From contig JAYRGW010000001.1 in assembly GCA_041907665.1 (NCBI GenBank), positions 93,915 to 157,914 on the forward strand: a stretch of 64,000 nt of DNA, written 5' to 3'. The stretch is from Bacteroidaceae bacterium. Its GTDB lineage: Bacteria; Bacteroidota; Bacteroidia; Bacteroidales; Bacteroidaceae. Under the pieces are notes generated by a model. That model ran no database searches, was not told where the DNA came from, and saw only the letters and a list, made by a program, of their open reading frames with translations. The translations under genes and the position numbers were made by a program. Below are positions 7,594-13,110 of this stretch, one piece after another; position 1 is the first letter of the stretch; the number at the start of each line of letters is the position of its first letter.

Positions 7594-7668
7594 GCTTCTC
7601 TAATTATGTTAACAATATGCGTCATTGTAGAATATTAATTCTAGGGAATCTTTTATTCTATATTGCAC

Positions 7669-7788
7669 CAAAATTACTATTAATATGGTAGAGAGGTCGG
7701 CAATGTTAGTGAAAAAGTAGCAACTCGTATGATTTAATATTGTTGACAATCAGTTTATTGTGAATGTTTGTAACGCGGAAAAAAGTAG
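7669..7788 (-). promoter_or_regulatory. Predicted activator-dependent promoter/operator of the GH97 gene
   Basis: Read on the minus strand: distal box CTACTTTTTT (7779-7788), proximal box CTACTTTTTC (7711-7720) with starts 68 bp apart, and -7 box TAATTTTG (7669-7676) starting 44 bp after the proximal box. No -33 TTTG is present. The geometry is the same as upstream of susC. Confidence 0.55.
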
Positions 7789-7805
7789 TGGCTATATGCT
7801 ATTTG

Positions 7806-9434
7806 CTATCCTAAATCGTTGAGTTGTGCTATTTTCATAATTTCTTTTTCGAGTGCATTACGGTCACCTTTTGCTGCATTTCTTATTTTTACTCTATAAT
7901 TATAGATAGTGGTGACCGAGTATCTCAAGAACTTTGCAATCTTGGCGCTATCAGAGATACCCAATCGAATTAATGCAAATATACGTAGCTCTACATTGAG
8001 TTGTCCTTTCTCCTTGGGATAGATTCTGCCTTCTGGGATTAACATATTGTTGAACTCTTCGACAAAAGTGGGGAAAAGCTCAAGAAAAGTTTTGTCGAAG
8101 TTCAAGTAGAAGTCTTTTAATTCGTTTTCGATGAACTCAGACGAACGTAATGCTCTATACAGCGCTTCTACTTTCTCGTTAGAGGCGATCTTTATAAGGG
8201 AGTGCTGGTATTCATTCATCTTCTCGATATAGAAAGAACACAATTCCATGTATCGACTTAGGCTTGCTTCTTTTATATTATTTGCTTCGACAAGCGATAC
8301 ATTGGTTGTTATTAGCTTTCTATTCGAATGTTTGAGTGCTTCATTCAAGTCTATTAGGTTTTGTTTGAATAGAGAGAGCTTATTCTTTTGTTTGTTCAAA
8401 TAGAATAGCACGATAGCCAATACGATAGCCAATATTGTAATGCATGCAAAGGCAATGGTGCGTTGTTGCTCTTTTTTCTGTAGCTTTAGTTGATAGCTCT
8501 TCTCCACAATGGGGTATATCTGAGAAATCTCGACGGTGCGAAGCCGTGCATTGCAATAAGAAGCATCTTCCATTGCACATTTCATATAGTTGTATGCCCT
8601 ATTCAAATCTCCTTCCTTATATAAAAGTTTGGATAGCTCTAATAGCGAAAGATATTCTTTTGTTGCCGACTGAAGGTCTGCAATGGCTGATGTAGCTAGA
8701 TAATACTCTTCTCTTTCAGTATCTCCCGCTTGGCGATAGGCCATTGCTATGGTATAGCCTAAATATCTCATCATATCCATATCCGATTTCTTCACCCAGG
8801 GGAGCATCAGGTTGAGCGCTTCTTTATAATTTCCATTGTCCAAAAGCTTTTCTGATTTTGAGATCGCATAAGAAGAGGTGTTCTTTCCTTGATAGAGCAT
8901 TAAGGAGTCTCTGTAAAGGCTTACTTGGCGAACATATTCGTTATGGAATGATTTCTTGGAAGAATAATCGGCCATGAAACCATACATCATACGATAGACG
9001 TGGTAACAATATTTTAGATTGCTGGCATTGAGAGAATGTCTATTAACCGAGTTCGCTAAGTTTAGGGCTTCCAGATACAATCCTTCTGTAGCATAGACTT
9101 CGGCCAATGTTAGTATCGAGTGATTAATATATTCCGTATTATTTAAGTCTTTTGCCAATGTTAGTCGTTTGGAAGCAAACACTTCAGCCGAGTCGAGATT
9201 AAACACTCGATACTCTTCGTAAATCTCATCAATCAATTTGTATTGACGTTCTTTACTTTTTGCCATATTGAATTGCTCCTTTGTCTTTGCAATCAAATCC
9301 AATTTCGTTTGAGTGATCTGTTGTTTTTCTTTTACAACTTTATCGAGTATGGCTAATGCTTCTGGTGCGGTCGATTGGGCAGAGCAAACGGCTGGCAAAA
9401 ATATTAGAACAATAAGGCGTAATAAATTTTTCAT
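7806..9434 (-). CDS. Membrane-anchored TPR-sensor/HTH transcriptional regulator (DUF6377-type), paralogue 1
   Basis: 542 aa. Domain order: signal peptide, about 300 aa of TPR-like helical repeats, one TM helix (TIAFACITILAIVLAIVLFYL), a coiled coil, and a C-terminal LuxR-like HTH (LNVELRIFALIRLGISDSAKIAKFLRYSVTTIYNYRVKIRN). Confidence 0.75.
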   Translation of the reverse strand: MKNLLRLIVLIFLPAVCSAQSTAPEALAILDKVVKEKQQITQTKLDLIAKTKEQFNMAKSKERQYKLIDEIYEEYRVFNLDSAEVFASKRLTLAKDLNNTEYINHSILTLAEVYATEGLYLEALNLANSVNRHSLNASNLKYCYHVYRMMYGFMADYSSKKSFHNEYVRQVSLYRDSLMLYQGKNTSSYAISKSEKLLDNGNYKEALNLMLPWVKKSDMDMMRYLGYTIAMAYRQAGDTEREEYYLATSAIADLQSATKEYLSLLELSKLLYKEGDLNRAYNYMKCAMEDASYCNARLRTVEISQIYPIVEKSYQLKLQKKEQQRTIAFACITILAIVLAIVLFYLNKQKNKLSLFKQNLIDLNEALKHSNRKLITTNVSLVEANNIKEASLSRYMELCSFYIEKMNEYQHSLIKIASNEKVEALYRALRSSEFIENELKDFYLNFDKTFLELFPTFVEEFNNMLIPEGRIYPKEKGQLNVELRIFALIRLGISDSAKIAKFLRYSVTTIYNYRVKIRNAAKGDRNALEKEIMKIAQLNDLG

Positions 9435-9813
9435 GTAAGTGTTAGTGCTATTTCTGATAGGTTTCTCTCTTCTCTATTTATAATCTCAAAAATAAACTTT
9501 TTTTTTGACTTAAGAAACATAATCAAGAGAAAAAGAATGAATTTTAATGTGCAACCGTTTTACTTGTTCTAAAAGGTCCTTGATCTTTTGTGAATCGTGG
9601 GTGTCAATAGTAGGTTTGAGTATTGTTGGTGGATTGATAATATAGTTGTCTCAAGTTGTATAGTGTTGTTCAACATCTTTTTATATGTATAATATCTTTT
9701 ATTTTTATTAATTTTCATCGTTGCTTTTAATAAAGAAACGGAGATATGCTAACCAATTAATAAATATTATTTATATTTACGTCGTTCTAATTAACCTTTT
9801 TATTATCTAGTGT

Positions 9814-11018: not shown

Positions 11019-11241
11019 TCATTTAATTTTATGTGTATTTTTTTTAGAGAATAAGTATTGCAATTTATTTATTTCTGTAACTTTGTTTATCAGAAATGCT
11101 TTAAGATTGTTTATTGTATTTTGTAGCATTTGGCGAATTGTTCGGTGTTGGCATCATGTCTTATTGTTTTGTGAGAAGAATCACTTTCCTTTATGATCAC
11201 ATGATATTGAATTGATGTTGAATTGTTATTATTAATTGCTT

Positions 11242-12903
11242 ATGGATTATATGAAAAAGTATTTGTGCTTTGCGCTTTTCTTATGCTTGCCCTCTTTTTG
11301 CTTTTCTCAACTAAATCTTTCGCAAGTATTGAATCAGCTAGATAAAGTTATTCTTGATAGACAGCAAATAACAAGTCTGAAACTTGATAGTATTCAGAAA
11401 TTGAAAGAACAGTTTAGATACACTCGAAGTGCCTTACAAAAGTATCAATTGTCAGATAAAATATATAAGGCTTATAGCAAATTTGAAACAGATTCGGCGG
11501 GAGCTTATGCTCGATATAAACTGGCATTAGCTTATGAAATGAATAATTTGCCATGTATTGAATATGCTAAACTGAATATTGCAGAAGTATATCATATTCA
11601 GGGCATGTATATAGAGGCTTTGAAAACTGTAGGTGATGTGAAAAAAAAGTTCTTGGATAAAGCCGGTCTGAAATACTATTTTAATATATATCGTACTCTC
11701 TATGGATATATGGCAGACTATGCATCCGATAAAACTTGTAAACGTCTTTATACTGATAAAACAGATGTTTATAGAGATTCTTTATTGGCTGTCCAAAATA
11801 GAGGATCGTTTAATGAAGTTATTGTTAAAACAGACGGTCTCTTGCGTAGAGGATATTATAGGGAAACACTTGCTTTATTATCTCCCTGGTTCCATAAGAG
11901 TGATCTTGATATGATGCGTTCGCTTTGTTATACATTTGCAATGGCCTATCGCCAAGCGGGAGATACGGAGAAAGAAGAATATTATTTTGCTCTTTCGGCA
12001 ATCGCCGATTTGAAAACAGGTACCAAGGAATATTTATCTTTATTGGAATTATCGAAGATCTTATTCAAAAAGGGAGATTTGGATAGAGCTTATGCTTATA
12101 TGAAAACGACAATGGAGGATGCTGCTTTTTGTAATGCCCGACTTCGTACTATTGAAGCTTCTGAGATTTATCCAATAGTAGTAAAAGCATATCAGCATAA
12201 ACTAAAGAAGAAAGAGCTGCAGCGCACTTTAGCTCTTTCGTGTGTAAGTCTTTTAGCTGTTCTTTTATCTGTATTGTTATTTTTCTTGAATAAGCAGAAG
12301 AATAAACTGAACATATCCCGAAAGGATCTTATAAATCTTAACGAGGCTTTAAAATCATCTAACGTCGCATTGAAGGAGTCCAATGACGCTTTGATGATAT
12401 CTAATTCTTCGCTTGTTGAAGCGAATTATATAAAGGAGGCAAGCGTCAGCCAATATATGGAACTATGTTCTCTCTATATTCAGAAGATGGGAGAATATCA
12501 GCATTCGTTAATTCGGATTGCTTCTAATGAAAAAATAGAGGCTCTTTATCAAGCATTGAAGTCTTCTTCTTTTATTGATAAAGAACTGAAAGACTTTTAT
12601 TCTCATTTTGACAGAACATTCTTGCAATTGTTTCCTACTTTCGTCGATGATTTCAATAATCTTCTTGTTCCCGAAGGGAAAGTTCATCCCAAAGTAAAAG
12701 GACAACTCAACGTTGAATTACGCATCTTTGCATTAATTCGGTTAGGTATCTCTGACAGTGCAAAGATTGCAAGCTTTCTTAGATATTCTATTATTACGAT
12801 TTATAATTATAGAGTAAAAATAAGGAATGCGGCAAAAGGCGATCGTAATTTGCTTGAAAAAGAAGTAATGAACATTGGCTGTTTTAAGAATACCACAGAT
12901 TAG
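11242..12903 (+). CDS. Membrane-anchored TPR-sensor/HTH transcriptional regulator (DUF6377-type), paralogue 2
   Basis: Same architecture as 7806-9434. The track ORF begins at a TTG (11236). The ATG candidates are 11242 (MDYMKK) and 11251 (MKKYLCFALFLCLPSFCFSQ signal peptide). The HTH segment differs from paralogue 1 at 3 of about 50 residues. Confidence 0.75.
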   Translation: MDYMKKYLCFALFLCLPSFCFSQLNLSQVLNQLDKVILDRQQITSLKLDSIQKLKEQFRYTRSALQKYQLSDKIYKAYSKFETDSAGAYARYKLALAYEMNNLPCIEYAKLNIAEVYHIQGMYIEALKTVGDVKKKFLDKAGLKYYFNIYRTLYGYMADYASDKTCKRLYTDKTDVYRDSLLAVQNRGSFNEVIVKTDGLLRRGYYRETLALLSPWFHKSDLDMMRSLCYTFAMAYRQAGDTEKEEYYFALSAIADLKTGTKEYLSLLELSKILFKKGDLDRAYAYMKTTMEDAAFCNARLRTIEASEIYPIVVKAYQHKLKKKELQRTLALSCVSLLAVLLSVLLFFLNKQKNKLNISRKDLINLNEALKSSNVALKESNDALMISNSSLVEANYIKEASVSQYMELCSLYIQKMGEYQHSLIRIASNEKIEALYQALKSSSFIDKELKDFYSHFDRTFLQLFPTFVDDFNNLLVPEGKVHPKVKGQLNVELRIFALIRLGISDSAKIASFLRYSIITIYNYRVKIRNAAKGDRNLLEKEVMNIGCFKNTTD

Positions 12904-12917
12904 TTCTTATTTGTTTA

Positions 12918-13037
12918 CTACTTATTTATTAATTACAATTAAGCTTAATAGCCTGTCTAATAGGTTGATTGTAATGGATATTTTACTACTTATTTAATAC
13001 ATGTCTTATTTTCTTATCTTATTTAAGACTACATTTG
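12918..13037 (+). promoter_or_regulatory. Predicted activator-dependent promoter/operator of the susC-susD-GH13 operon
   Basis: Distal box CTACTTATTT (12918-12927), proximal box CTACTTATTT (12986-12995) with starts 68 bp apart, and -7 box TACATTTG (13030-13037) starting 44 bp after the proximal box. No -33 TTTG is present. Confidence 0.55.
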
Positions 13038-13110
13038 AATTGAAAAACGGGCAATACCTTGACACTCGTTTTTATGAAAACATTTTGTTAACGATTAATA
13101 TTATTGAAAA

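Follow-up and report, generated by a model that had tools for sequence, protein, structure and literature searches.

Paired direct-repeat boxes behind two SusR-family genes of a Bacteroidaceae starch-type locus: probable operator sites in two activator-dependent promoters

Two paralogous regulator genes of the DUF6377 type, found in a starch-type locus of a Bacteroidaceae bacterium, are each followed by an intergenic region in which a ten-nucleotide box of the form CTACTTWTTY occurs twice ahead of a putative promoter, and this arrangement raises the question of whether the boxes are the sites through which the regulators act. The stretch of DNA concerned (hereafter the window) comprises 64,000 nucleotides of contig JAYRGW010000001.1 from assembly GCA_041907665.1 (positions 93,915 to 157,914 of the forward strand), and the positions given below are those of the window. 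In an initial annotation, CTACTTWTTY had been put forward as the candidate operator of DUF6377 regulators. The present analysis supports that candidacy through the conservation of the layout, its orientation and the outcome of the controls, from which direct binding is what we infer. We report that the two box pairs are probably operator sites of SusR-family activators, placed in two activator-dependent promoters of the starch-type locus.

Both intergenic regions were read directly, and all coordinates given for them in the initial annotation were correct. On the minus strand, the stop codon of regulator 1 (TAG, 7808-7806) is followed by the distal box CTACTTTTTT at 7788-7779, which lies in the context gCCACTACTTTTTTcc, scores 16.5 bits with the weight matrix described below and is identical in L001, the corresponding locus of a genome about 90% identical. 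The proximal box, CTACTTTTTC at 7720-7711 (13.4 bits), starts 68 bp after the distal box; a -7 element of the Bacteroidetes type, TAATTTTG at 7676-7669, follows 44 bp from the proximal-box start, and the ATG of a GH97 gene is found at 7593. On the plus strand, the stop codon of regulator 2 (TAG, 12901-12903) is followed by CTACTTATTT at 12918-12927 as the distal box (context TTTACTACTTATTTA; 13.7 bits) and by a second CTACTTATTT at 12986-12995 as the proximal box, again 68 bp further on (13.6 bits), both of which are kept in L001. The -7 element of this promoter, TACATTTG, is located at 13030-13037, 44 bp after the proximal-box start, and the susC ATG at 13111. The identical geometry claimed for the two promoters, 68 bp between the boxes and a further 44 bp to the -7 element, was confirmed.

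The Bacteroidetes housekeeping promoter, reportedly described by Bayley et al. in 2000, combines a -7 element TAnnTTTG, centred near -7, with a TTTG at -33. Both window promoters possess the TAnnTTTG element, and TTTG is absent from the -33 zone (about 19-21 bp upstream of the -7 element) of both, as had been noticed.

Exact CTACTTWTTY occurs six times in the 64 kb, against 1.05 occurrences expected, and none of 100 shuffles reached six. Same-strand pairs 60-85 bp apart number two, both with a -7 box at 44 bp, and none was obtained in 1000 dinucleotide shuffles; a weight-matrix scan of the whole 64 kb for the pair together with the -7 element returned these two places only. The spacer sequence between the boxes is conserved neither between the two window promoters nor in comparison with L001. 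Exact or near matches at 136, 43962, 53659, 53377 and 56590 were considered as further regulon members and rejected, as they lack both a partner box and a correctly spaced -7 box; the match at 136 falls within a coding region. No boxes were found ahead of the regulator genes or of the DUF4434 gene that lies between them (9434-9814 and 10908-11236), and no terminator was predicted between regulator stop and boxes in the window.

Regulator 1 (542 amino acids; 7806..9434, minus strand) is a SusR-family membrane-spanning activator (Pfam DUF6377/SusR_C, E 2e-84; NF058541, 528 bits), and regulator 2 (11236..12903, plus strand) is a paralogous SusR-family activator (Pfam DUF6377, E 8e-82; NF058541, 512.8 bits). 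Both exceed the equivalog cutoff of 480 bits of NCBIfam model NF058541 (SusR_regulator) and cover positions 2-515 of its 515. In the current Pfam nomenclature the domains are named PF19904 SusR_C (formerly DUF6377) and PF28559 TPR_SusR. DUF6377 is not an uncharacterised class but the C-terminal domain of SusR, the classic activator of starch utilisation, an identity that the initial annotation had not recognised. Its statement that this class has no experimentally defined binding site appears to be true, as none was found in the SusR papers searched, including those since 2021, and in a 2019 paper the SusR mechanism 'remains undefined' (PMC6874557). The two regulators are 59% identical. Their helix-turn-helix (HTH) regions had been described as almost identical and indeed differ at three positions only (K/S, V/I, T/I); the HTH motif ELRIFALIRLG...YNYR, invariant in 21 homologues, is carried by both.

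The conservation of the arrangement was surveyed in a sample of 80 loci encoding SusR-family proteins, with one genome per species. The sampled genera and families include Bacteroides, Prevotella, Paludibacter, Muribaculaceae, Tannerella and Flavobacterium, from the orders Bacteroidales and Flavobacteriales, and at each locus the 400 nt located 3' of the regulator stop codon were scanned. An unbiased search for 10-mer direct repeats, in which no motif was given beforehand, was performed on 79 regulator genes, a number reached by adding the two window regulators to the 80 loci and leaving out three contigs that end at or just before the stop. It recovered ACTACTTTTTT-type pairs in about 30 loci, with spacing peaks at 77, 75 and 64-68 bp. 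The initial annotation had made its proposal depend on the box being enriched and conserved in position beside DUF6377 genes elsewhere; using CTACTTWTTY with at most one mismatch, on the same strand and 60-85 bp apart, pairs were detected directly behind the regulator in 28 of 74 independent loci. No locus had such a pair on the reverse strand, upstream, in the regulator coding sequence or in the next 1.5 kb downstream, and 200 shuffles gave a mean of 0.175 loci and a maximum of 2. The proposal withstood this test.

A weight matrix was then refined on the related loci (consensus tccACTACTTTTTTag), and the full layout was defined as two boxes of more than 7 bits, 64-69 or 74-79 bp apart, with a -7-like element, TAnnTTT[G/A], 43-45 bp after the proximal box. 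This layout is present downstream of the regulator and on its strand in 47 of 75 loci. The controls consisted of the reverse strand (0), upstream regions (0-1 of 70), other overlapping 400-nt tiles of the same loci (7 of 5684) and 200 shuffles (0). It was seen in Bacteroides, Prevotella, Marseilla, Paludibacter, Muribaculaceae, Lentimicrobiaceae and Flavobacterium, so that boxes in this geometry occur in two orders, in exclusive association with SusR-family genes. The seven tiles beyond the regulator-downstream regions may be additional SusR-controlled promoters inside the same polysaccharide-utilisation loci (PULs), like the two promoters of the window.

The geometry of the related promoters is narrowly distributed. 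The distance from the proximal box to an exact TAnnTTTG is 44 bp in 23 loci, 43 bp in 9 and 45 bp in 3, and in Flavobacterium the proximal box lies 43 bp upstream of TAnnTTTA; overall, 57 of 77 related promoters have their -7 element at an offset of 43-45 bp. Second boxes, relative to the proximal box, are nearly all at -75 to -78 (38 loci) or -66 to -68 (10 loci), giving two family-wide classes of spacing, 64-68 and 75-78 bp. Spacing covaries with offset, the combinations being 75/43 (Flavobacterium, Paludibacter), 77/44 (Bacteroides, Prevotella), 78/45 and 66-68/44, and the total from distal box to -7 element amounts to 110-112 or 118-123 bp. Three further lineages, fetched via close homologues of regulator 1, have 68/44, 68/44 and 66/43. 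No conserved element was found between the proximal box and the -7 element, where the information content across related promoters is near zero. TTTG was present in the -33 zone of 2 promoters of 57 and absent from the other 55; the lack of the -33 element in the window and in the related promoters fits activator-dependent promoters rather than full consensus ones. Both promoters are kept in L001, where it is mainly the spacers that have changed; boxes and -7 elements are the same as in the window apart from the tenth base of the proximal GH97 box, which is C in the window and T in L001 (CTACTTTTTT).

Behind the box promoter, 34 loci have a susC-like gene and 18 a GH97 gene, and both kinds occur in the window. 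The short distance between regulator stop and distal box, to which the initial annotation had also drawn attention, holds for the window (17 nt behind regulator 1 and 14 nt behind regulator 2) and does not hold as a general feature, since it varies elsewhere from 6 to 94 nt with an outlier of 212; it is incidental. Tandem promoters, with the distal box serving a promoter of its own, were ruled out, as a -7 element of its own at 43-45 bp follows the distal box in 1 of 47 cases.

Some further features of these regions are recorded as side observations. In six Flavobacterium loci (L028, L035, L044, L052, L056 and L068), the unbiased search also picked up the box as a direct repeat at 97 bp, from which a third box-like copy some 22 bp ahead of the distal one would follow; this copy exceeds 8 bits with the weight matrix in L028 alone (CCACTTTTTT). 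At 8294-8340 of locus L083, a perfect inverted repeat of about 20 bp (AAAATAACAAATCGGTAACA ... TGTTACCGATTTGTTATTTT) lies between the two boxes, and it may be the regulator's terminator hairpin situated inside the operator spacer. Both window leaders contain TTGTTAAC, 22-25 nt before the start codon (7608-7615, minus strand; 13086-13093, plus strand), and ATTATTAACTTTAAATT is located about 10-15 nt before the susC ATG in many related loci, as it is in the 2013 alignments for BT3090 and BACUNI_01942 (PMC3878776). Among the related loci, L002-L010, L015, L016, L040 and L043 show this feature just upstream of the target ATG. It may be a conserved leader element that serves translation, a small RNA or an RNA-binding protein.

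The operator idea was already predicted computationally in 2013, and the window is a further example with the same box and long spacing. In that study, phylogenetic footprinting was carried out in 11 genomes of the genus Bacteroides only (Ravcheev et al. 2013, BMC Genomics 14:873; PMC3878776). SusR-like operators were predicted there as direct repeats at a centre-to-centre distance of 67 or 77 bp, with different motifs for the SusR subgroups that correlate with the HTH tree, and the motifs were deposited in RegPrecise (PMC3878776). The supplementary alignment for SusR2/BT3091 contains CCACTACTTTTTT twice, followed by TACTTTTG or TACATTTG, whereas the main text makes no mention of the fixed -7 distance or the missing -33 element (PMC3878776). 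The window boxes agree with the published description in spacing (68 bp against about 67/77 bp) and resemble the box of the SusR2 subgroup.

Comparison with the SusR2 system (BT3091, dextran PUL48) is the closest in terms of the box itself. The CCACTACTTTTTT found ahead of BT3090, BACOVA_02787, BACUNI_01942 and BACCELL_04952 matches gCCACTACTTTTTT of the window; in both cases a direct repeat with a long, non-conserved spacer lies between the regulator stop and a susC-like gene, and the SusR2 loci L003, L004, L040 and L043 have the same 44 bp offset as the window. The spacing differs, being 77 bp for SusR2 and 68 bp in the window, although a '67' class is reported in the 2013 paper for further groups of the SusR-like kind. 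Identity between the window regulators and the BT3091 group is only 43-44%, and their locus is of the starch type (GH13, GH77, pullulanase, GH97), without a GH66 dextranase. Experiments in B. thetaiotaomicron lend indirect support to the operator reading: the whole stretch between bt3091 and bt3090, where boxes of this kind are present (L004), gives dextran-inducible expression when placed ahead of a reporter or another gene, and more bt3091 regulator raises the output approximately three-fold (PMC6874557). As regards transcription starts, the supplementary files of the differential RNA sequencing study of B. thetaiotaomicron contain no entry for BT3090, BT3703 or BT3704 (PMC7366714).

SusR proper (BT3705, the activator of susA and susBCDEFG in B. 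thetaiotaomicron) belongs to the same protein family by the NCBIfam model and shares with the window regulators the role of activator of a maltooligosaccharide/alpha-glucan locus, the adjoining GH97 (SusB-like) gene and susC, and the presence of two target promoters per locus. It differs in that one regulator serves two promoters there, while the window has two paralogues, each with its own promoter, and the published box of the canonical SusR group is of the TATATTTT type, not CTACTTTTTT (PMC3878776). The operators of the hybrid two-component systems (HTCS) of Bacteroides PULs, predicted in the same study (PMC3878776), are likewise direct repeats upstream of susC-like genes and are bound by membrane-anchored sensor-regulators. 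HTCS boxes have a spacing of about 21 bp, or two helical turns, and are recognised by AraC-type domains, whereas SusR boxes are 66-78 bp apart and associated with an unrelated HTH.

Box variants were found to follow HTH variants: RYSVTT occurs with CTACTTT, RYSLST mostly with CTACA, and RYSIIT with CTACTTATTT. The recognition helices of the window paralogues are RYSVTT in regulator 1 and RYSIIT in regulator 2, and position 7 of the box is T in both boxes behind regulator 1 and A, with TTTA flanks, in both boxes behind regulator 2. The helix difference and the T7/A7 difference are both kept in L001. RYSIIT together with the A7 box comes from one lineage only, the other close homologues (P0002-P0009) all being of the regulator 1 type; within these limits, the CTACTTATTT variant is, judging from the sequences, tied to one paralogue, regulator 2.

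An AlphaFold2 model of regulator 1 (pLDDT 83.7) is all-helical. In this model, residues 23-293 form a tetratricopeptide repeat (TPR) superhelix, for which the best Foldseek matches in the PDB are TPRs of the LGN type (E 5e-6), and residues 297-377 form one very long transmembrane or coiled-coil helix with a hydrophobic stretch at about 325-347. C-terminal helices at 481-490, 496-503, 507-519 and 525-532 make up the HTH region (481-532). The regulators are accordingly predicted to have a periplasmic TPR sensor, one membrane helix and a cytoplasmic HTH end. Foldseek searches with the full-length model returned TPR proteins only. With a model of the C-terminal fragment, LuxR-type proteins came first (3clo, LiaR, NarL, RcsB and GerE), at a root-mean-square deviation of 2.5-3 A over about 55 residues, a probability of up to 0.97 and E-values of 0.2-2. 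Neither window regulator matches Pfam GerE, and a phmmer search of the cytoplasmic domain against the PDB gave just weak, insignificant matches to TetR-type HTHs (E 0.2-1). Two details of the gene models may be added. The open reading frame of regulator 2 called by the program begins at TTG 11236, and alignment with regulator 1 and the homologue P0001 points to ATG 11242 or 11251; ATG 11251 is the likely true start. Within the homologue P0017 (599 amino acids, NCBI), a segment of about 48 residues that spans FDNTFLQLFP...ELRIFALIRLG occurs twice in identical form, probably as an assembly or annotation artefact.

If the boxes are SusR operators, the regulator would act as a one-component, membrane-spanning sensor whose periplasmic TPR domain senses an oligosaccharide. 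In the presence of the sugar, the HTH domains of an oligomer would bind the two direct-repeat boxes (consensus ACTACTTTTTT), each paralogue presumably at the promoter behind its own gene. With TAnnTTTG centred near -7 and an offset of 44 bp, the proximal box would span about -56 to -47 relative to the putative transcription start site, just upstream of the position of the missing -33 element, and protein bound there would recruit RNA polymerase to a promoter unable to fire alone. The distal box, 68 bp further upstream (some 120 bp ahead of the -7 element), would be occupied by a second protomer, probably through cooperative binding on bent DNA; in other lineages the spacing is about one helical turn longer (75-78 bp). 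As the spacing classes are one helical turn apart and spacing covaries with offset, the rotational setting of boxes and core promoter appears to be under constraint. ToxR, TcpP and CadC are likewise single inner-membrane polypeptides that combine periplasmic sensing with direct repeats upstream of the core promoter and polymerase recruitment. They differ from SusR in having an N-terminal winged-helix (OmpR-type) DNA-binding domain and the opposite topology, and are not homologous.

Several observations weigh against this interpretation or restrict it. Protein and DNA are linked by association. Many of the related loci come from Flavobacterium or Bacteroides, and the loci are not phylogenetically independent. 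The layout is missing in 28 of the 75 loci, including all those of Tannerella and Phocaeicola, most of which have a different downstream gene arrangement. In relaxed B-DNA, 68 bp make approximately 6.5 turns, and without distortion the two boxes would face opposite ways; the picture of boxes on the 'same face' given in 2013 (PMC3878776) is therefore not obviously right and needs DNA distortion or another helical repeat. A LuxR/GerE-like four-helix fold for the DNA-binding domain is a lead from the fragment model, with E-values below significance. Among the loci without the layout are L026, L032, L046, L048 and L065 of Tannerella and L053 and L078 of Phocaeicola, several of which have unrelated or convergent genes next to the regulator. 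The HTHs of Tannerella and Phocaeicola differ (FLQYS..., GYSLATVYNYR), suggesting that these proteins probably use another box or have their target elsewhere.

The associative nature of the link leaves room for the boxes being real but read by another factor, such as a global carbohydrate regulator, RNA polymerase via an UP-like element, or an alternative sigma factor, in which case the connection with SusR would reflect a shared design of PUL promoters. The boxes are T-rich, like many upstream regions in Bacteroidetes, and a fixed distance to the -7 element would also suit an element contacting the polymerase. On such a reading the layout should not be nearly absent from the 5684 other tiles of the same PUL loci, which include many promoters, nor be confined to the regulator's strand directly downstream of SusR-family genes; moreover, the invariant C-A-C core (CTAC) does not resemble an UP element, and neither does the presence of a further copy some 120 bp ahead of the -7 element. 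The agreement of box variants with HTH variants, and that of the subgroup-specific motifs with the HTH tree (PMC3878776), likewise speak for the SusR proteins as the readers, and we consider another reader improbable. Still less credence can be given to chance similarity in AT-rich intergenic DNA, or to a functionless remnant of local duplication. Although the regions are AT-rich and one-mismatch matches are common (48 in the window, 28 expected), the pair never arose in 1000 shuffles, the geometry is identical at two unrelated promoters, and the layout is kept at 47 of 75 distant loci; the sequence between the boxes is not conserved, and hence there was no duplication. This explanation, to which we assign practically no weight, is effectively refuted.

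A closer competitor accepts the boxes as SusR operators and holds that the paralogues are not insulated, so that either regulator, or a heteromer, acts at both promoters and a single regulon is served by two sensors. The three-position difference between the HTHs, the shared CTACTT-TT of the boxes with their identical 68/44 geometry, and the place of GH97 and susCD-GH13 in one pathway all agree with cross-talk, as does the fact that regulators of the regulator 1 type elsewhere (L081, L082) work alone with a GH97 gene. Yet A7 with TTTA flanks marks both regulator 2 boxes and T7 both regulator 1 boxes, this difference is kept in L001 despite diverged spacers, and the RYSIIT helix is confined to the regulator 2 lineage, which suggests co-evolved specificity. 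Cross-talk is to be taken seriously, at somewhat below an even chance. The operator reading also has a more ambitious form, in which the SusR operator is a rigid nucleoprotein architecture conserved in Bacteroidota, with the proximal box, locked at 43-45 bp from the -7 element, replacing the -33 contact and the distal box at two settings one turn apart, and in which the window holds a recent paralogue pair with split specificity (SVTT/SIIT, T7/A7). This form is tentative and, as it stands, rather unlikely. If true, the rigid architecture would imply a membrane-tethered oligomer that wraps or bends about 120 bp of DNA against RNA polymerase, and SVTT/SIIT with T7/A7 would constitute a natural minimal specificity switch for this DNA-binding domain.

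The genes that surround the two regulators are consistent with these roles. The GH97 alpha-glucosidase gene (SusB-like; 5458..7593, minus strand; Pfam GH97_N, Glyco_hydro_97 and GH97_C) is located behind the regulator 1 promoter. The target operon behind the regulator 2 promoter (13111..19760, plus strand) comprises, by Pfam, a susC-like gene (13111-16125), a susD-like gene (16155-17882) and a GH13 alpha-amylase gene (17994-19760). The neighbouring genes are GH97, susC/susD, GH13, GH77 with CBM20, a pullulanase and the end of an MFS transporter gene, and this content identifies the region as an alpha-glucan (starch-type) utilisation locus. The DUF4434 gene (9814-10908, plus strand) lies between the two divergently arranged regulator modules, with no box pair ahead of it. 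In L081, a metagenome contig from the Joint Genome Institute (JGI), the regulator P0009, 70% identical to regulator 1, adjoins GH97, GH77-CBM20, pullulanase and MFS transporter genes as in positions 1-9434 of the window, and the 8 kb fetched on that side contain neither a second regulator nor a susCD module. The lineage of the window may therefore have gained the regulator 2-susCD-GH13 module.

With respect to the 2013 prediction, the gain is one of confirmation, extension and precision, not of discovery. Modestly new are the fixed offset of 43-45 bp between proximal box and -7 element, together with the systematic absence of the -33 element; the reach of the layout beyond Bacteroides to Prevotella, Paludibacter, Muribaculaceae and Flavobacterium; the restriction of the targets to susC-like and GH97 genes; and the paralogue pair with differing recognition helices and a one-base difference in the box. 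SusR is the founding regulator of the polysaccharide-utilisation paradigm, and its DNA recognition is known from prediction. The window provides an internally replicated example, in which two paralogues and two promoters have the identical 68/44 geometry, and the layout, which recurs in lineages as far apart as gut Bacteroides and environmental Flavobacterium, gives a usable rule for annotating SusR regulons and is useful for designing sugar-inducible promoters in Bacteroidota. The geometry described here offers a precise guide for a biochemical test of how SusR-family regulators recognise DNA.

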